Below the pieces are notes generated by a model, which was given only the letters and a program-made list of their open reading frames with translations, made no database searches and was not told where the DNA came from. From Candidatus Staskawiczbacteria bacterium (GTDB lineage Bacteria; Patescibacteriota; Minisyncoccia; Minisyncoccales; Staskawiczbacteraceae), in assembly GCA_903885445.1 (NCBI GenBank), contig CAISIO010000029.1, positions 1-38,380 on the forward strand: a stretch of DNA of 38,380 nucleotides, given 5' to 3'. This document shows positions 29,035-37,645 of this stretch, piece by piece; the first letter of the stretch is position 1, and every line of letters starts with the position of its first letter. Position numbers and translations under genes: made by a program.

Positions 29035-31521
29035 ATGGCAATTATTATTCCGGGACTTATTGCGGTGTTTCTGCTGGTAGTGCTGGCTTTTGTGATGGTT
29101 TTAAATGCGGAAACCAAAGAGAAAGAGTCGGTTTTCGGCGGGCTTGATATGGTTTTGTTTTTGGTGATGATGCCAAAAAATCAGCCAAGAAAAGAAGGTG
29201 AACAGCAGAAAGAAGAAAAAACAATGGTGGCGCAAATGGAACAAGTTTTCGCCAACTTTTTGTATTTGAAAAAACCGAAAATGTTTCAGACCGCGCCCGC
29301 AGTCGCCTTTGAGATTGCTTCACAAATTGGAAGTTCAGATATTTCTTTTTATGTGGCGGTTCCAAAATATTTGGAATCTGTTTTTGAAAAATATGTGCAA
29401 GGCGTTTATCCAAACGCGGTTGTCGACAAGGTTCCGCAGGACTACACAATTTTTGAGCCTCAAGGGGCTACCGCCGCCGCCTATTTACGGCTTTCAGAAA
29501 ATTCTCTTTTTCCAATCAGCACATATCAGACATTGGAAACCGATCCATTATCTGTGGTGACAAATAATTTGAGCAAAATTACCGCTAATGAAGGCGGAGC
29601 AGTCCAGGTCTTGATAAGGCCTTTGTCGAAATTAAATTTGAGGAAAGCGGGGGAGAAAGCTTTGAAAAAAATTAGGGAAGGCAAATCCGTGAAGGGCGCG
29701 GTTGAAAGAGCATCAGGCTGGGGTCCTGCTAATCTTATAGAAATAATCGATGAAATTTTTGTGCGAGGACCGAGAGATTCGAAGCGGAAAGAGGCAGAGG
29801 GAAAAAGCCTGCCTGCCGGCAGACAGGAGCAGGGGATTGACCAGAAGGGTTATGACGCAATCCAAAGTAAAATCCAGAAACAGCCGTTTGAAGTGAATAT
29901 AAGGGTTGTCGCCGCAGCGCAATCAGAAGGCCGGGCCGAGGAAATTTTGAACCATCTGGTTTCGGCATTTAGCCAGTTTTCTTTGTCGGCGATAAACAGC
30001 CTGGAACCGCGAGAAGTTTACAAAAAGGAATTGCAAAAACTGGTTTATGACTTCAGCTTCCGCTCTTTTAATAAGAATCAAAGCAATATTTTAAATCTTG
30101 AAGAGCTGGCGAGTATTTATCACTTTCCAACGCATTATATTGAAACGCCGTATATTAAAGCCGCCAAATCGGCAACAACTCCTCCGCCGTCGGATTTGCC
30201 GGAAAAAGGCGAGACGTGCGTTGGAAAAGTTTCGTACAGGAACGAAGAAAAAAAAGTTTATTTTGGAAGCAGGGCTGACCGCAGAAGGCATCTTTATCTT
30301 ATTGGGCAAACCGGCGTTGGAAAATCTGGTTTTATGGAAGGACTGATTGCCCAAGACATTGCAAACGGCGAGGGTGTGGCCGTTGTTGATCCGCACGGAG
30401 AATTGGTTGACCATATTTTAGCCATGATTCCAAAGAACAGAGTTGAAGATGTGGTTATTTTTGAGCCGTTTGATATTTCGCGTCCGTGCGGCTTGAATAT
30501 GTTGGAATACGATTCGCCAGAACAAAAAGATTTTGCCGTGCAGGAAATGATTGCTATTTTTATGAAGCTTTTTCCGCCCGAAATTATCGGCCCGATGTTT
30601 GAGCACTATATGAGAAACGCCATGCTGGCGTTAATGGCAGACAAAGATAATCCGGGAACTCTGGTTGAAATTCCGAAGATGTTTACCGATCCTGCGTTTT
30701 TACAAACAAGAATGGCGAAAGTTTCCGATCCGATTGTGCGAAGTTTTTGGACAAAAGAATGGGCGCAGACAACCGGCTCTACAAGGTCTGATATGTTGGG
30801 CTACGTTGTTTCAAAACTCGGCAGATTTATTGAAAACGAAATGATGCGAAATATCATCGGGCAGTCGCACTCCGGGTTTGATTTAGCCGAGATAATGGAT
30901 TCTAAAAAAATATTCTTGGCAAATTTATCCAAGGGTTTGACTGGCGAGGTAAACAGTTCTTTGCTTGGTCTAATTTTGGTTTCTAAAATTCAGATGGCAG
31001 CCATGCGACGCGCCAGAATTGCCGAAGACCAAAGAACGGATTTCTATTTATATATTGACGAATTCCAAAACTTTACAACAGATTCCATTGCTACGATTTT
31101 GTCTGAAGCCAGAAAATATAAATTAAACTTGATAATGGCCCACCAGTACATGCCACAGTTAAAGCAGGAAATTCGCGACGCGGTTTTAGGAAACGTTGGC
31201 ACGATTGGAGCCTTCAGGATTGGAGCTGAAGACGCCGAAAATCTGGAGAAACAATTTGAGCCAGGATTTTCCAGATTTGACCTGGTGAATCTGGACAACT
31301 TTACAATGATAATTAAGATGATGATAAACAACAAGATTTCAACACCGTTTAAAATGAATACGCTGCCGCCTCCAAAAGGAAAGCCGGAAATTGTAGATGT
31401 AATCAAAAAGATTTCCAAATTAAAATATTCCCGCGCTAAAGATATTGTAGAGCAAGAAATCTCCCAGCGTTCGTTTGTCGAGTCTGCCCCAGTTGTCCCG
31501 ATACCGCCAATCAAGAAGTGA
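29035..31521 (+). CDS. VirD4/TraG/TrwB-like ATPase
   Basis: N-terminal TM; DRRRHLYLIGQTGVGKS (Walker A), DPHGEL, LYIDEFQNF (Walker B), LSEARKY, AHQ. Confidence 0.88.
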   Translation: MAIIIPGLIAVFLLVVLAFVMVLNAETKEKESVFGGLDMVLFLVMMPKNQPRKEGEQQKEEKTMVAQMEQVFANFLYLKKPKMFQTAPAVAFEIASQIGSSDISFYVAVPKYLESVFEKYVQGVYPNAVVDKVPQDYTIFEPQGATAAAYLRLSENSLFPISTYQTLETDPLSVVTNNLSKITANEGGAVQVLIRPLSKLNLRKAGEKALKKIREGKSVKGAVERASGWGPANLIEIIDEIFVRGPRDSKRKEAEGKSLPAGRQEQGIDQKGYDAIQSKIQKQPFEVNIRVVAAAQSEGRAEEILNHLVSAFSQFSLSAINSLEPREVYKKELQKLVYDFSFRSFNKNQSNILNLEELASIYHFPTHYIETPYIKAAKSATTPPPSDLPEKGETCVGKVSYRNEEKKVYFGSRADRRRHLYLIGQTGVGKSGFMEGLIAQDIANGEGVAVVDPHGELVDHILAMIPKNRVEDVVIFEPFDISRPCGLNMLEYDSPEQKDFAVQEMIAIFMKLFPPEIIGPMFEHYMRNAMLALMADKDNPGTLVEIPKMFTDPAFLQTRMAKVSDPIVRSFWTKEWAQTTGSTRSDMLGYVVSKLGRFIENEMMRNIIGQSHSGFDLAEIMDSKKIFLANLSKGLTGEVNSSLLGLILVSKIQMAAMRRARIAEDQRTDFYLYIDEFQNFTTDSIATILSEARKYKLNLIMAHQYMPQLKQEIRDAVLGNVGTIGAFRIGAEDAENLEKQFEPGFSRFDLVNLDNFTMIIKMMINNKISTPFKMNTLPPPKGKPEIVDVIKKISKLKYSRAKDIVEQEISQRSFVESAPVVPIPPIKK
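29808..29827. repeat. 20-nt near-perfect palindrome within the CDS (encodes LPAGRQ)
   Basis: CCTGCCTGCCGGCAGACAGG, one mismatch away from a perfect palindrome. Confidence 0.7.
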
Positions 31522-31549
31522 TTGACGTGATTCTCTGATAGTATATAAT
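31522..31549 (+). promoter_or_regulatory. Sigma70 promoter
   Basis: TTGACG, 16 nt, TATAAT. Confidence 0.65.
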
Positions 31550-31570
31550 AAAATCATAAATAATAAAAAT

Positions 31571-31780
31571 ATGGCGGACAAAAAAATAACAATTGAGGAA
31601 TTGGCAAAAATGATAAATAAAGGATTTAATAATGTCACAGGACAAATTAACGGTTTAAAAACAGATGTTGCAGATATAAAAAAAGATGTTAAAGAAATAA
31701 AGAACGAACTTGTCAGAGTTGATGCGGTAGAAAAAAGAGTTGATTACATCGAAAACACATTAAACATCTCGGCTAATTAG
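31571..31780 (+). CDS. Small coiled-coil hypothetical protein
   Basis: 69 aa with heptad pattern LKTDVADIKKDVKEIK; own promoter upstream. Confidence 0.7.
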   Translation: MADKKITIEELAKMINKGFNNVTGQINGLKTDVADIKKDVKEIKNELVRVDAVEKRVDYIENTLNISAN

Positions 31781-31824
31781 TTTGATTTTAAATGAATAAA
31801 TTATGTCAGCTAAACTCCGAATCC

Positions 31825-31847
31825 GAGAGAGAGAGAGAGAGAGAGAG
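31825..31847 (+). repeat. (GA)11 simple sequence repeat
   Basis: Perfect GA x11 plus G; the only long dinucleotide tract noticed in the window. Confidence 0.95.
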
Positions 31848-31921
31848 TAAATCTCGCTCGCCAATTTTTTAACTCTTACTTTTTCAAAACCGCCGCAATT
31901 TTATTATGTGCCGGTTTTCTA

Positions 31922-34900
31922 TTGCCATCGTTAGTGCTGGCTTATCCCGAAATACCTCAAAATTCTGATCTAGTTGTCGCGGGTCCATACGACACCGCAG
32001 CGTCTGGAGCGGGGAATTGGGGTTGCGCTGGTTGTCTTCCTGGTGAATATCGTTATTTCGTAACAATAGGACAGAAATACCGCATAAGAGAGAATGGGAC
32101 AATTTCCAGGGTGCGCATATATACATATCTTAAGACAAACGTCACGGGCTTTTATATTGATGTGTGGAGGAAAAATGGATCTAATTATGATTTGGTAGGA
32201 ACTAGCGAGAATATTATAGACAGCCTAGTTTCGGCCGATTATGCAACCATTGACTTAGCTTCGCCTATTTCTGGTGTGCAGGAGGGGGACTATTACGGAT
32301 ATCATATGACATTTAGTGCTGGTTCCAGCAGCGCTTTCTTTGCAAGAACGAGCGTAAGTGGTGTGACAACCTATTACGCTACCAACTCTACGCCCAATTC
32401 AACAAATTATAACTGGACGGGCCAGTCATCGCTCGCCGGTGCGGTTTTGCCGATAGAGTTGTATATGACAGCTCCGCAATTTGCTTTTATCGGTGACTCT
32501 ATAATTGCCGGCCACCCCGGCCATTATAGTTTCCTCGAAGCAACCGCAACTACCAATATTGCTTCAACAATTGAAAATCAATTTGGCGCCTTAGGGAGTT
32601 ACACATATCAAAACATGGGCATTGGTTCTCAAACCACGACTAATATTGCCGCCCGTTTTACAAACGATATAATAAATCTACACCCTACGGTTGTTGTATT
32701 AGAGGGTGGTGTAAATGATATAGCGGGGGGCGCTGCAAAATCTACTTTTATTTCTAATTGGACAACGATGCTGGCAGCCGCGCAGGCCAGTAGTAGTGTT
32801 CAATATATTTTAGTCTTGAAAATTTTGCCGTGGACAAATGGTACCAACACACAAATGCAAACCCGAGATGATTGGAATGCTTCATTGGTTGCACTTGCCT
32901 CAAGTTATTCAAAAGCTATTGTTGTTGACGCGAGCACTTATGTGGGAGAATTTCGTGCTGGTGGTGATGCTGGAAATCTTTGGAATATTCAGGCTATTTA
33001 TAACGCAGATGGAGTTCATTTTAACCAGGCTGGTCATGGGCAAGTAGCCCTTGCTCTTGGCGAAGCTCTTAATAATATTGGCCCGACCATCTCCACCTTG
33101 TCTCCCGTGGATAACGCAACAGGAGTTGACATGGACACTAATCTCGTGATTACCTTTGACAGAGTTGTTATCCCGCAGGCAGGAGCAGACAATAACATCG
33201 TTATCAAAAAAACTAGCGATAATTCAACTATTGAAACTATCGATGCGGAAAGCGCGCAGGTTACCGGCAGCGGGACAGCAACAATTACCATTAATTCATC
33301 TGTTACGTTGGATCCTTCAACAAGTTATTATGTCCAAATTGGAGTGGATGCTTTTGATGATGCCAGTGGCAATAGTTTCGTGGGCATCAGTAACACAACA
33401 ACCTGGAATTTTACAACCGTTGATATTGAAAACCCTCTAGTCTCCACCTTATCTCCTGCAGATAACGCTGTAAGCGTCGATGTGAGCGCCAACCTCGTGA
33501 TTACTTTTGACGAAGCTGTCACTCCGCAGGCCGGCGCTAACAATGATATTATTATTAAAAAATCCAGTGACAACAGCACGGTAGAAACGATAGATGCCCA
33601 AAGCGCGCAGGTTACCGGCAGCGGGACAGCAACAATTACCATTAATCCATCTATCACACTGGCTTCCGCGACAGATTATTACGTCCAGATTGGAGCCGAT
33701 GCGTTTGACGACACAAGTGGCAATAGTTTCGTGGGTATAAGCAATACTACAACTTGGAATTTTACAACAGGAGCGGGTCCTTTGGATGGATTTTTATATT
33801 ATAAACAGATAACGGTTAGCAATGCCAATATAGATGCTGTTCTTACTGATTTTCCGTTGCGTGTTTACATATCGGCAGATTCGGATATGGGCGCCGTTAC
33901 GAGAGATGATGGTTACGATATACGTTTTACTGCGCCTGATCAAGCTACAATCCTGCCATATCAGCGCGAAACTTGGAGTGGTGGCAACGGGTCGGCTGTT
34001 ACGGCCAATTTTTGGGTGAAAACAACGCTTAATGCCGATAATAACACTGCAACTAATGATACGATCTATGTTTATTATGGAAAATCTGACGCAATTGATG
34101 GCCAGGATGCTGCTGATGGCGATAATGATGTTTGGAACAGTAATTTTGCCGGAGTTTGGCATTTGGACGAAACTGCAACTGACGAGGGAACCGTTGCTGG
34201 GCTTCATGCCGACTCCACTTCAAATAATAAAGATGGTAGTCAGAGTGGTAACACCAATACTGTCGGTAAGATTTCTAACGCTCAAGATTTTGATGGAATC
34301 AATGATGTTATAGAAATTAATTCCGCATATAACAGCGCCGATATAACTGTTTCATGGTGGTCCAATTGCGCTATTTCAAATCCAACAGCGGAAGGAATCT
34401 TAGCAATTTATCGCCAGGCGAGTGGCGATAGTCTTTGGGGGTATCATTGGAATCTTGTCACTAGCGGAGTATATATTGTTTACAGAGACGCTTCAACGAA
34501 CACGTTTTATAAAAGAATTTTGGATTCTTCAATAACGCAAGCAGATTGGCATTATTATTCCGTGGCGTGGGATGAAACAGCTAAAACTTTTACTTTGTAT
34601 GTGGACGGTGTAGTGCAATCTGGTGTTGGCACTGGAAATCCTGATTTTCCGACGACACTTGCCACAACGAGATTGGGTTATAGTCATGAAAATTGGCCGG
34701 GAGATGTAAATATAGATGAATTCAGAATTTCTTCGATTGTCCGGCCGGTGGCGTGGACAAAATTTGAATATAGAAATATGGGAGTGGCGGGCAATGATAT
34801 TAATTTTGGTGATCAAACTTCAACGGCTAGTACCGACGCGACCATCTCTGCAGGAACCTTAGCCTCGCAAACCATCTCGGGGACATTCACCGGCGGAGCT

Positions 34901-37645
34901 AATATCGCGGGCAGTTCGGCCTTAACGGTCACAGTCCCAGATGCTGACAAAACAAACGCGGCCTTGGCGCTAACAAAAGGCGACTCAGGTTCAACTATCA
35001 AGTACGTCAAAGGTTCTCAGCCTAGCGTTGATGGCGACTACACTGGCACCTACTCTCAAGGCAGCACAACCATCACCGTAGTCAACAACGACATCATCTG
35101 GTTATTGGTAACCGCGGCAGACACGACAACCAAGCTGTATTACAAGATTACGGTTACGGTCAATGCGCCACTCGTAACAGATATTACAACTGCAGGCGTG
35201 ACTGGATTTGTGGCTCCGGCAACAGGTGGAACGCCTCAAGTGTTCGGAAACTTAACAGCAGGCTCAGTACAATATACTGTTACGGGTTTAACATGGTCTC
35301 CAACTGATAATCCTTTCCACGCATCAACAGCTTATACAGCCACAGTCGTGCTTACTTCCGCTGCAATTTACAAGTTTCCGACAGGAAACATAGCATCTCC
35401 GACTGCTGATGTCGGAACAGTAAACAGCATAGGCACAACCAGCGGTGGTGATGTGTCGGGCAACCATCTCACATTCACAGTGCTGTTCCCGGCAACGGCT
35501 GCCAAAATTACTCCAACTCTTTCAGTCACCAATTCGCCCGTAACTTACAATGCATCTCAGCAGACAGCCACAGTTTCAGGTTCGGTTGCAGGAACTGTAA
35601 GTAATGTTGAATATTCAGGTTCTCTGACTGTTCCAACTAATGCCGGCACCTACGCAATTACAGCTGACTTTGCTCCGACAGATTCCACAAATTATAACTC
35701 GTTGACCGGAGCATCGGCAGGAAACTTTGTTATCAGCAAAGCCACCCAATCAACATTAACCTTTGCGGGCCGGACCGTTACTTCTCCTGCAACCTTTTCA
35801 GCTCTTTCAACGACCGGCGGTTCTGGAACCGGAGTTGTCTCGTACGCTGTCACAACAGCAGGAACAGCAGGTTGCAGTATTGTCGGAACCACGCTTTCGT
35901 ATACATCAGCTGGAACATGCGGAGTCACAGCAACCAAAGCCGCTGACTCAAATTATAATTCAGCTTCATCATCTGAAGCTACGTTTACAATTAACGCAGC
36001 GCTGAATTCAGCTAAATCAATTACAGCATTCAGTTTTCAGGGGTTGAGTCCGGCGGTCACAGCAATAATCAACGGGACAAATATTACCGCAACTTTTCCG
36101 TTCGGCACAACAATCACTAATCTTGTGGCAACATTTACAACCACTGGCTCGTCAGTTGCAGTCGGCGCAACACCGCAAACAAGCGGAACAACGGCAAACA
36201 ATTTCACAAGTCCGATCACTTATACAGTTACCGCCGAGAACTCAACTACACAAGATTATACGGTTACTATTAATGTGATTGCTTCGTTGGTTATTTCCGA
36301 CGTTCTATCTGTCCCAAATTCTTCGGGGGCAGTTATTACCTGGACAACTAACGAAAACTTATCTTCTAAAGCTGACTATGGATTAACAACTTCCTACGGC
36401 GATTCAACGGCAGAAACAGACACATCAACAAGAGTCGCTAGCCACTCAGTATCTCTGTCCGGCCTTTCTGCTTGTACAACTTACCATTATCGCGTTCGGT
36501 CACGAGACGCGGCTGCTAATGAAATAGTCGATAATGACAATACTTTTACAACTACAGGTTGTGTCGGCTCTGCGCCGGTGACCGCTACTGCGACGGAGCA
36601 AATTAATAAAGCTACAGGAGGAACATTAACGTTAGAAGACGGTAGCTCTCATGGATTAACATTAACCGTTCCAGCTTTGTTTGCCGGATCCGACGCCAAC
36701 TTTCAGGCTCATCAATTAGACAAAGCGACGGTTTTAGCAACAACAGCTAGTCCGGCTGGATACTCTGCTGCCAGCAACCATATCTATGAATTAAAATCAT
36801 TGGCTGATAACGCAACAACCATTTCTACTTTTAGTAATGCGCTGACGGTTAGCATTTCCTACGGAGCTAGCGATATTGTTGGTTTAGATGAGTCAACCTT
36901 AAAAATATACCGATATGACGGCAGCAGCTGGAGCCAATTAACCGGGTGCACAGGGGATACGAGCGCGAAAACGGTTACTTGCACCACTACCAATTTCTCC
37001 GTGTTTGGGCTTTTTGGAGTAGCCGTAGCAAGCACAAGCGTTACCTCCGGGGGAGCCGCGTTGCCAGAGGGGTCATGGAATAAACCCGTAGCTCCCATAA
37101 ATGGGTTTGGAATCATGATCAATAATGGAGAAAAACAAACCAGTTCGACTAAGGTTATTCTAACTCTTGTTGGCGGACCAGACACCGTTAACATGGCAAT
37201 CTCTGATACAATTAATTTTATTAATTCATGGCAAGAGCCATACTCGTTAAAAAAATCTTGGACATTGCCAAGCGGTCAGGGGTTGAAAACGGTTTTTGTA
37301 AAATTTTATACAAAATGGGGTCAGTCATCTGATCCGGTTTCTGCGAGTATTATTCTAGCGAATGTAACCTCAGCGAACACAATTTTAAATCCATCATTAT
37401 CACCAGGGCTATTCACTCAAGCCCTACAATATGGTTCGAATAATAAGCAAGTTGTCTTACTTCAAGATACTCTGAAAAAATTAGGGTTTTTTCCTCAATC
37501 TATAAAATCCAATGGTAACTTCGGGCCAGCCACCCTTAAGGCTGTGCAATCCTTTCAGGTAAAATATAACATCGCAAAGCTAGGCGTTGTGGGTTACGGC
37601 CAAGTTGGGCCTAAAACTAGGTCGTTCTTGAATCAACTAAAATAG
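31922..37645 (+). CDS. Giant multidomain surface protein: SGNH hydrolase, two Ig-like (Big_5-type) domains, DUF2341-like, LamG-like, MBG-like, FN3-like, C-terminal peptidoglycan-binding domain; true 5' end lies upstream across the GA tract
   Basis: GDS/GVND/DGVH SGNH blocks; repeated STLSPxDNA..WNFTT; LTDFPLRV..DIRFT; GVWHLDE..IDEFRIS; TTYHYRVRS; LQDTLKKLG..GNFGPATLKAVQSFQ; the frame is open upstream of 31922 and encodes a signal peptide. Confidence 0.85.
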   Translation: MPSLVLAYPEIPQNSDLVVAGPYDTAASGAGNWGCAGCLPGEYRYFVTIGQKYRIRENGTISRVRIYTYLKTNVTGFYIDVWRKNGSNYDLVGTSENIIDSLVSADYATIDLASPISGVQEGDYYGYHMTFSAGSSSAFFARTSVSGVTTYYATNSTPNSTNYNWTGQSSLAGAVLPIELYMTAPQFAFIGDSIIAGHPGHYSFLEATATTNIASTIENQFGALGSYTYQNMGIGSQTTTNIAARFTNDIINLHPTVVVLEGGVNDIAGGAAKSTFISNWTTMLAAAQASSSVQYILVLKILPWTNGTNTQMQTRDDWNASLVALASSYSKAIVVDASTYVGEFRAGGDAGNLWNIQAIYNADGVHFNQAGHGQVALALGEALNNIGPTISTLSPVDNATGVDMDTNLVITFDRVVIPQAGADNNIVIKKTSDNSTIETIDAESAQVTGSGTATITINSSVTLDPSTSYYVQIGVDAFDDASGNSFVGISNTTTWNFTTVDIENPLVSTLSPADNAVSVDVSANLVITFDEAVTPQAGANNDIIIKKSSDNSTVETIDAQSAQVTGSGTATITINPSITLASATDYYVQIGADAFDDTSGNSFVGISNTTTWNFTTGAGPLDGFLYYKQITVSNANIDAVLTDFPLRVYISADSDMGAVTRDDGYDIRFTAPDQATILPYQRETWSGGNGSAVTANFWVKTTLNADNNTATNDTIYVYYGKSDAIDGQDAADGDNDVWNSNFAGVWHLDETATDEGTVAGLHADSTSNNKDGSQSGNTNTVGKISNAQDFDGINDVIEINSAYNSADITVSWWSNCAISNPTAEGILAIYRQASGDSLWGYHWNLVTSGVYIVYRDASTNTFYKRILDSSITQADWHYYSVAWDETAKTFTLYVDGVVQSGVGTGNPDFPTTLATTRLGYSHENWPGDVNIDEFRISSIVRPVAWTKFEYRNMGVAGNDINFGDQTSTASTDATISAGTLASQTISGTFTGGANIAGSSALTVTVPDADKTNAALALTKGDSGSTIKYVKGSQPSVDGDYTGTYSQGSTTITVVNNDIIWLLVTAADTTTKLYYKITVTVNAPLVTDITTAGVTGFVAPATGGTPQVFGNLTAGSVQYTVTGLTWSPTDNPFHASTAYTATVVLTSAAIYKFPTGNIASPTADVGTVNSIGTTSGGDVSGNHLTFTVLFPATAAKITPTLSVTNSPVTYNASQQTATVSGSVAGTVSNVEYSGSLTVPTNAGTYAITADFAPTDSTNYNSLTGASAGNFVISKATQSTLTFAGRTVTSPATFSALSTTGGSGTGVVSYAVTTAGTAGCSIVGTTLSYTSAGTCGVTATKAADSNYNSASSSEATFTINAALNSAKSITAFSFQGLSPAVTAIINGTNITATFPFGTTITNLVATFTTTGSSVAVGATPQTSGTTANNFTSPITYTVTAENSTTQDYTVTINVIASLVISDVLSVPNSSGAVITWTTNENLSSKADYGLTTSYGDSTAETDTSTRVASHSVSLSGLSACTTYHYRVRSRDAAANEIVDNDNTFTTTGCVGSAPVTATATEQINKATGGTLTLEDGSSHGLTLTVPALFAGSDANFQAHQLDKATVLATTASPAGYSAASNHIYELKSLADNATTISTFSNALTVSISYGASDIVGLDESTLKIYRYDGSSWSQLTGCTGDTSAKTVTCTTTNFSVFGLFGVAVASTSVTSGGAALPEGSWNKPVAPINGFGIMINNGEKQTSSTKVILTLVGGPDTVNMAISDTINFINSWQEPYSLKKSWTLPSGQGLKTVFVKFYTKWGQSSDPVSASIILANVTSANTILNPSLSPGLFTQALQYGSNNKQVVLLQDTLKKLGFFPQSIKSNGNFGPATLKAVQSFQVKYNIAKLGVVGYGQVGPKTRSFLNQLK
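33249..33646 (+). repeat. Direct DNA repeat from a duplicated Ig domain
   Basis: Identical 47-mer AAAGCGCGCAGG...ACCATTAAT at 33249-33295 and 33600-33646 (351-nt spacing, 117 aa). Confidence 0.9.

Follow-up and report, generated by a model that had tools for sequence, protein, structure and literature searches.

The stretch of DNA analysed here (the window) is the entire 38,380-base contig C29 of a Candidatus Staskawiczbacteria genome, which has 804,281 bases in 45 contigs and is 95% complete. A perfect run of eleven GA dinucleotides lies in it between two upstream ATG codons and the signal peptide of a giant exported protein, and we consider it likely that this (GA)11 locus is a contingency switch that works by slipped-strand mispairing and was assembled in its OFF state. 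The reading is supported because the same tract recurs in homologues with other lengths and in other frames.

Two start codons, a GA tract and one long frame

The locus consists of the following elements.

31792-31794, + strand: first start codon, ATG, which joins the long frame at n=12 or 9
31803-31805, + strand: second start codon, ATG, which joins the long frame at n=10 or 13
31811-31813, + strand: TAA that closes the long frame on its upstream side
31814-37645, + strand: whole long open frame of the regulated gene, 1,943 codons plus stop (last codon ends at 37642, stop at 37643-37645)
31825-31847, + strand: (GA)11 plus G, the tract prone to slippage, which in frame codes for an Arg-Glu run in the signal-peptide n-region
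31848-31942, + strand: rest of the signal-peptide coding region (VNLARQFF..KTAAILLCAGFLLPSLVLA), with putative cleavage after Ala 31940-31942

The TAA at 31811-31813 stands in the long frame, and therefore no start farther upstream is usable for it. Between this stop and the signal peptide the frame holds no ATG, GTG or TTG, and the first such codon is TTG 31922, within the hydrophobic core of the signal peptide. The two ATGs lie in the other two frames, each of them open into the tract, which is the layout of the licA type. At n=11 the frame of ATG 31792 reads MNKLCQLNSES, a Glu-Arg run across the tract and SKSRSPIF before it ends at TAA 31870-31872, and that of ATG 31803 reads MSAKLRI and an Arg-Glu run before TAA 31848-31850 directly behind the tract. 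Tandem Repeats Finder describes 31825-31847 as a repeat of period 2 with 11.5 copies and 100% matches. The unit length of 2 is not a multiple of 3, so that gain or loss of a unit connects or disconnects start and frame. ATG 31803 becomes fused to the long frame by the loss of one unit or the gain of two, ATG 31792 by the gain of one or the loss of two, and n=11 is the sole OFF register of the three. An earlier note on this DNA had stated that the giant frame has no ATG before the signal peptide and that n=11 is the only OFF register for the two ATGs, and sequence and frame arithmetic agree with it on both points.

If the locus is a switch, replication slippage would change the tract by whole GA units, and mismatch repair would probably not correct the changes: searches for MutS_V and MutL domains gave nothing in this 95%-complete genome, while they match in 11 of 14 control genomes. 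At the assembled length one frame stops directly behind the tract and the other 22 nucleotides on, and no exported protein would be made. With n=10 or 13 translation from ATG 31803, and with n=12 or 9 translation from ATG 31792, would run into the long frame and the gene would be ON. From either start the signal peptide would be long, with the Arg-Glu run, an n-region of net positive charge and a hydrophobic core, and would be cleaved after VLA. We infer that tract length varies in the population, that both ATGs are used and that the switching is adaptive, as variation of the surface towards hosts or phages.

The signal peptide is, by homology with the leaders of relatives, probably real. It has a hydrophobic core, TAAILLCAGFLLPSLVLA, and V-L-A at the aligned cleavage position of the relatives; an n-region exists in the ON registers only. 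The window leader ends ..VLA/YPEIPQNSDLV (the slash marks the cleavage site), and relatives with an ordinary ATG end ..FA/YP.Y.ANSDLV at the equivalent place. The public gene call for the giant protein (P0003) starts at GTG 31934 (MLAYPEIPQ..), with the signal peptide cut off.

The tract exceeds chance expectation. In the 804,281 bases of the genome there are five dinucleotide repeats of at least five units, four of exactly five and this one of eleven, and a 16-mer GA pattern occurs in this tract only. Homopolymers within contigs are no longer than A10. At the extreme start of contig C37 (positions 1-17) there is a C17 homopolymer, which may be an artefact of assembly at a contig end, or else a further unstable tract at which the assembly broke.

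Shine-Dalgarno-like motifs precede 61 of 600 open reading frames (ORFs) of at least 150 amino acids, a background level of 10.1%. Because the genes of this genome are generally at that level, the missing Shine-Dalgarno sequence at both ATGs is no problem, and the sequence ranks neither start above the other. Two other explanations of the sequence were considered and rejected. The GA run is not a ribosome-binding site for a later start, as no start codon is within its reach and the genome moreover does without Shine-Dalgarno usage. An alternative genetic code is irrelevant to the frame reading because all the stops involved are TAA, and was ruled out on the same ground.

The tract in homologues and across the order

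We collected 34 homologous loci and examined the 5' ends of 27 of them, the other seven being omitted since their match begins far inside the query. Five of the 34 have a (GA)n tract that follows upstream ATGs and precedes the homologous signal peptide, namely L012 (n=9), L024 (n=12), L025 (n=12), L033 (n=12) and L034 (n=9). The tract of L025 is in frame, the other four are each one unit from an ATG, and L024 has ATGs in both other frames, like the window. None of the six leaders, that of the window included, holds an in-frame ATG, GTG or TTG between the tract and the hydrophobic core. A search for orthologues with the N-terminal 468 residues in 60 relatives found none, its only other match being a Big_5 piece in G030.

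A scan of the collected loci for (GA)n of at least seven units added four more (L008, L011, L022 and L026), where (GA)7-16 lies within a short leader ORF and the homologue, with a start of its own, follows about 450 nucleotides downstream. The layout upstream of these esterase homologues is fixed (L008:100-300, L011:2450-2650, L022:330-550, L026:170-375): a promoter, an MNKI.. leader ORF with the (GA)7-16, an intrinsic terminator, a gene for a membrane protein of 130 amino acids, and the esterase gene.

Some homologues carry other simple repeats, or palindromes, near their 5' ends. In L027 (position 2932) a G9 run lies in frame inside the leader of the esterase homologue (..KVRGGGLNGKV..), and in L018 (2840-2895) T13 plus (AT)8 stand just upstream of the start. 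L033 (2935-2990) and L034 (2960-2995) have a short palindromic element (..cattcccgcgaaagcgggaatcc..) as an in-frame insertion that separates the GA tract from the core of the signal peptide, with a second palindrome after the first in L033; they resemble miniature palindromic insertions within coding sequence.

The earlier note had suggested a scan of genomes of the candidate phyla radiation for (GA)n at the 5' ends of surface genes. Among 401 genomes sampled from the order of the window, 30 (its own genome included) have (GA)n of at least nine units, and the composition-matched control (CA)9 occurs in 0/401 of the same genomes; because of this, general microsatellite drift is not seen. Several genomes of the order carry two to six GA tracts, for instance six in G210 and four in G105. 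G-TAA-A follows directly after the tract in 18 of 37 instances, irrespective of the reading frame. Two genomes of the same genus have the tract on unrelated signal-peptide ORFs. In one of them (L068 in G003) n=10, ATGs are present in both other frames and the state is OFF; in the other (L070 in G015) n=9, one ATG is in frame and a second one is one unit off. One of these two leaders has a hydrophobic core homologous to that of the window.

The other strand of the repeat, (TC)n, is found in the leaders of six type-IV-pilin-like genes, in frame in three, and in three other secreted ORFs, in frame in two. The pilin-like loci are L059 and L110 (G150), L060, L079 and L103 (G213) and L062 (G402), with leaders of the form ..AFTL[IV]E[IL]L.., and the Pfam family N_methyl was confirmed in two of the six, L060 and L062. 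The (TC)8-24 lies 24-29 nucleotides after the ATG, and a TATAAT box stands about 9 nucleotides before the ATG, which suggests leaderless mRNAs.

Seven reverse-transcriptase genes (Pfam RVT_1) carry (GA)9-18, in six of them mid-gene between reverse-transcriptase motifs, with three tracts in frame and four out. The loci are L050 and L071-L075 (G179, G263, G244, G163, G308, G195) and L067 (G031), and the genes have a ..IGNLTSQLFANVYL.. motif, which we take to be typical of the reverse transcriptases of diversity-generating retroelements. They may be phase-variable enzymes of such retroelements. Of the 25 coding tracts examined altogether, 10 are in frame, a share that looks close to random registers.

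Tract length evolves faster than the flanks. L071 and L072 have flanks that are 95.3% and 99.0% identical over 300 nucleotides on each side, with n=11 and 13; L059 and L110 are 100% identical over 83 nucleotides, with n=14 and 12; and L079 and L103 are 95.1% identical over 164 nucleotides, with n=8 and 24. Two loci from different families, L056 (G210, f40) and L058 (G105, f65), share 81% identity over 300 nucleotides upstream, with n=14 and 15 and nearly identical leader ORFs (MKIIKEVTKISAR..), which hints at horizontal spread of the GA-leader cassette. What the tract flanks have in common is only the G-TAA-A and a loose ..CGC..CGCCGAGTTTT motif, and for the idea of a mobile palindromic element made up of tract and flanks no ends or target duplications could be defined. 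To judge by the sequences, the window locus belongs to a (GA)n leader module of which copies are widespread across this Parcubacteria order. The five homologous loci with n=9, 9, 12, 12 and 12, the leaders on other surface genes and the 30/401 against 0/401 genomes together give comparative support to the contingency locus that the earlier note had supposed.

The assembled length could be an error, and in that case the true number of units would be 10 or 12 and the gene always on. Dinucleotide runs are error-prone in libraries based on the polymerase chain reaction, and the public runs that hold the sequence, four lake-water runs of a single study available as contigs only, cover it only 2-3 fold, with 14 short pieces at a depth of 2-8. 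One of the 14 pieces spans the tract, a 151-nucleotide unitig from run X3 at depth 2, and it has the same n=11 and 0 differences, which makes a consensus artefact less likely; the gaps over the tract in runs X1, X2 and X4 carry no information. Out-of-frame lengths prevail in independent assemblies of homologous loci, in four of the five leader tracts and seven of the nine loci of the fused type, and an in-frame length would still leave a perfect repeat of 22 nucleotides with ATGs in two frames. We regard such an error as quite unlikely.

Another explanation is that the protein is made at any n, by a start at ATT 31898, TTG 31922 or GTG 31934 or by ribosomal or transcriptional slippage, and that the tract only tunes the level. 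The database gene call at GTG 31934 agrees with this, and so does the prevalence of OFF registers in the relatives, which would be wasteful if they were null. Starts at 31898 or later would, however, leave at most 15 leader residues and no charged n-region, while all relatives with a normal ATG have a full signal peptide, and the six leaders share no conserved in-frame near-cognate codon between tract and hydrophobic core. The reverse-transcriptase genes hold the tract mid-gene, where an alternative start is no rescue, and four of the seven are out of frame. Slippage on dinucleotide runs is, to our knowledge, not an established recoding signal. Translation irrespective of n is in our opinion unlikely.

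Several observations weigh against the switch or limit the case for it. The unitig that spans the tract is a single piece and may share its sample with the assembly. The 60 relatives searched offer no orthologue in which conservation of the two ATGs of the window locus could be compared, and in 31300-32300 no promoter-like site was found directly before the two ATGs. Seven of the nine fused-type loci are OFF, three of the four dual-start loci among them, and about 4.3 ON would be expected among nine under random registers; this points either to a preference for OFF or to second ATGs of which some are unused. The 2:1 bias towards ON that the earlier note thought possible agrees with the architecture and not with the observed states: ATGs in two frames occur in 4/9 fused-type loci, compared with 12.4% (220/1,776) of the pseudo-tracts set at the starts of real genes (binomial P 0.018), where the compared loci are mutually related and the counts not independent.

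The predicted exported esterase and its genomic surroundings

Pfam searches and an AlphaFold2 model give the following domains for the giant protein.

31943-32470, + strand: N-terminal beta-sandwich domain of the mature protein (AlphaFold2, strands over residues 10-176)
32486-33037, + strand: SGNH/GDSL hydrolase domain (Lipase_GDSL_2, E 7.5e-17), catalytic blocks intact
33425-33769, + strand: Big_5 immunoglobulin-like domain, one of two matched stretches (E 6.3e-25)
33908-34114, + strand: DUF2341 (E 9.9e-07)
36305-36511, + strand: fibronectin-type-III-like domain (Pur_ac_phosph_N, E 1.9e-07)
37442-37594, + strand: C-terminal peptidoglycan-binding domain PG_binding_1 (E 1.8e-07)

The SGNH blocks I (GDS), II (G), III (GxND) and V (DxxH) are all present, and G184-D185-S186, G226, G256/N258 and H359 (mature numbering) are invariant in 16/16 aligned sequences. 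In the model, mature residues 1-387 form a beta-sandwich and, after it, an SGNH fold, with a mean predicted local distance difference test score of 87.4 and a predicted template modelling score of 0.84. The top matches of Foldseek in the PDB are two-domain carbohydrate esterases, 9kr1, 7toh, 2wab and 2wao (E 1e-15 to 5e-10), and include a polyvinyl-alcohol esterase, the acetylxylan esterase PbeAcXE and CE2 enzymes. These have the same N-terminal beta-sandwich and then the SGNH catalytic domain, although the sequence identity is 12-16%, the template modelling scores are about 0.5 and the orientation of the domains is unmatched (root-mean-square deviation 9-13 Å). They also differ from the giant protein in that the latter has about 1,500 further residues after the head and a peptidoglycan-binding tail.

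From its domains and the model we take the giant protein to be a polysaccharide O-acyl esterase that sits on a long stalk and is anchored to the wall. In an ON register the exported product of about 1,900 residues would carry the beta-sandwich and an SGNH carbohydrate (O-acyl) esterase as its head, followed by immunoglobulin-like and lectin-like spacers and the tail that binds peptidoglycan. An adhesin or an esterase had been suggested from the sequence; the esterase is supported by the Pfam match, the invariant catalytic blocks, the model and the fold matches, and an adhesin role is possible. Relatives at 50-68% identity are found in many metagenome-assembled genomes labelled Patescibacteria and in metagenome contigs.

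The catalytic blocks also bear on the idea that the gene is a decaying accessory gene, in which the GA run is a neutral microsatellite expanded by chance. The consensus is out of frame, and in searches of 25 genomes of the same genus the giant gene was absent from the results, as would fit such a gene. Set against this, 1,931 downstream codons are free of stops and the SGNH blocks invariant, the tract is perfect and stands at the equivalent place in diverged homologues, and (CA)9 is found in 0/401 genomes, so that we hold decay to be very unlikely.

The window codes for ordinary housekeeping functions as well (MraW, PBP2, a ClpB-like ATPase, a P-type ATPase, RmuC, SAICAR synthetase, a MacB-type ABC transporter, YceG and EF-P). 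At its start (20-2787) there is a surface protein of 702 amino acids (Ice_binding, SpaA_2, DUF7507), followed by a sortase, and directly upstream of the switch locus (29035-31521) a VirD4/TraG-like coupling ATPase of 828 amino acids. The top named relatives of the PBP2 are Candidatus Staskawiczbacteria, at 74-79% identity, which NCBI places in the Parcubacteria group of Patescibacteria, and the supposed membership of the candidate phyla radiation (CPR) is supported by this. Eight window proteins are all singletons at 90% identity in a collection of 15 billion proteins, and therefore no close strain is on record.

A possible transcriptional layer and known systems

Three features concern the transcript.

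31522-31549, + strand: sigma-70-like promoter (TTGACG, 16 nucleotides, TATAAT), 11/12 matches, the top site in 31300-32300
31571-31780, + strand: ORF of 69 amino acids, with its stop 11 nucleotides before ATG 31792
31886-31918, + strand: hairpin with a 12-pair stem (one mismatch), a 9-nucleotide loop and a T-rich tail, by folding, within the signal-peptide coding region

The promoter ahead of the 69-amino-acid ORF is the probable source of a transcript that reaches the switch, and between the two no terminator-like site was found by the terminator rule. The ORF matches 0 Pfam families, and an Rfam search of 31400-32100 gave nothing relevant, only a lone chance match to a small nucleolar RNA (E 0.7).

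The hairpin has a folding energy of -10.1 kcal/mol (z -2.63, 4/200 shuffles as good) and lies 38 nucleotides behind the tract, and both OFF frames stop before it, at +3 and +25 from the tract end. It is possible that it is an intrinsic terminator which forms when no ribosome reads through; a scan of 31300-32300 with the terminator rule gave 0 sites, and the hairpin does not itself meet the rule. Homologous and stronger hairpins are found in L033 (z -3.9), L034 (z -4.9) and L068, in the last with one compensatory change of G-C to A-T. In the same genus, G015 has a perfect terminator hairpin directly behind a stop codon (L078:1500-1535, G015:C1:85758-85790), and this terminator sequence is near-identical to the window hairpin. 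A pattern search for the hairpin in the family found it in 3/79 genomes only.

The four loci with a separate leader ORF (L008, L011, L022 and L026) have a canonical terminator, an 8-base-pair stem and a U-run, at +49 to +73 after the leader tract, and their three leader frames stop at +3, +46 and +53. Similar leader-terminator cassettes are found in further genomes. With a looser finder, a hairpin is present in 16 of 34 tract loci against 10% of random windows, and in 6/9 fused loci against 18-22% of ORF 5' regions, which shrinks to 3 of about 5 independent groups. The enrichment is statistically weak once relatedness is allowed for, and the leader hairpins hint at a transcriptional coupling.

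A wider arrangement can be sketched, which we put forward tentatively and think rather doubtful. It would be a portable module of a -10 box, an ATG, 25-50 nucleotides, (GA)n, G-TAA-A and a terminator hairpin 40-90 nucleotides on, in which the frame gates both the protein and downstream transcription, and together with its (TC)n mirror it would form a phasome across the order. Whether a ribosome gets as far as the terminator and melts it would depend on the frame that the repeat sets, and the module would then be a heritable attenuator driven by a repeat. Giant surface enzymes, type IV pilins and also the reverse transcriptases of diversity-generating retroelements would be subject to this phasome, in genomes that gave no match to Rho, MutS or MutL domains; for the window genome the search for the Rho RNA-binding domain, at 95% completeness, found none. 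In the trp and pyrBI attenuators, as in the four loci with a separate leader, a promoter-proximal short ORF ends at or just before an intrinsic terminator ahead of the structural genes. The known attenuators have the position of the ribosome set by the supply of charged tRNA or nucleotides, whereas here it would be set heritably by the length of the repeat.

Bacteria of the CPR, or Patescibacteria, are thought to live attached to other microbes, and surface variation in them is known mainly from diversity-generating retroelements. If the (GA)11 locus is a contingency switch, a genome of 0.8 Mb with no detected mismatch-repair domain keeps one hypermutable site and has it on its largest surface enzyme, and in its relatives the GA/TC device is also present on pilins and on retroelement reverse transcriptases. 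The tracts would then be a marker, readable from sequence, of the genes that are key to the interface between symbiont and host or between symbiont and phage. Genes switched by repeats are also likely to be given wrong starts systematically by annotators, as at GTG 31934 here, where the signal peptide is lost. The accessible parts of the literature on phase variation in Patescibacteria or CPR, Parcubacteria and Saccharibacteria describe no frameshift switch driven by a repeat; what the excerpt of PMC6851277 reports from a Gracilibacterium is an in-frame 9-mer repeat, a different thing from a frameshifting switch.

The nearest parallel to the two starts is licA (lic1) of Haemophilus influenzae, according to the available part of PMC2212159 a translational switch of (CAAT)n with initiation codons in two frames, which give two ON registers and one OFF. 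As far as that part goes, the likeness lies in a repeat that is not a triplet, just inside the 5' end of the frame, with upstream starts in two of the three frames. In licA, however, the unit is a tetranucleotide, the product is a cytoplasmic choline kinase of a Gram-negative pathogen and switching has been shown by experiment, whereas in the window, which is from a CPR bacterium of a free-living habitat, a dinucleotide lies where the signal peptide of a giant secreted enzyme is encoded, and switching is predicted from the sequence.

Helicobacter pylori is not known to have classical mismatch repair. Its oipA gene, in the portion of PMC10564699 available, has a CT dinucleotide repeat in the 5' region for the signal peptide and is ON or OFF by the number of units. 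So described, oipA and other outer-membrane-protein genes of H. pylori are like the window in having a CT/AG run in the signal-peptide coding region. They differ in that oipA has a single start and its repeat encodes part of the hydrophobic leader, while the GA strand of the window encodes a charged Arg-Glu run in the n-region behind two starts. The (TC)n variant of the relatives (L065, L066 and the pilin-like genes) is nearer to the H. pylori layout.

The opa genes of Neisseria, with CTCTT repeats in the coding region of the leader peptide, are a family of surface genes in which a shared leader that bears the repeat is a module. Their unit is a pentanucleotide and they are paralogues of one protein family, whereas the same leader heads unrelated mature proteins in the window, L068 and L070. 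The proposed mechanism is that of a classical contingency locus, and the novelty lies in the lineage and in the modular leader.

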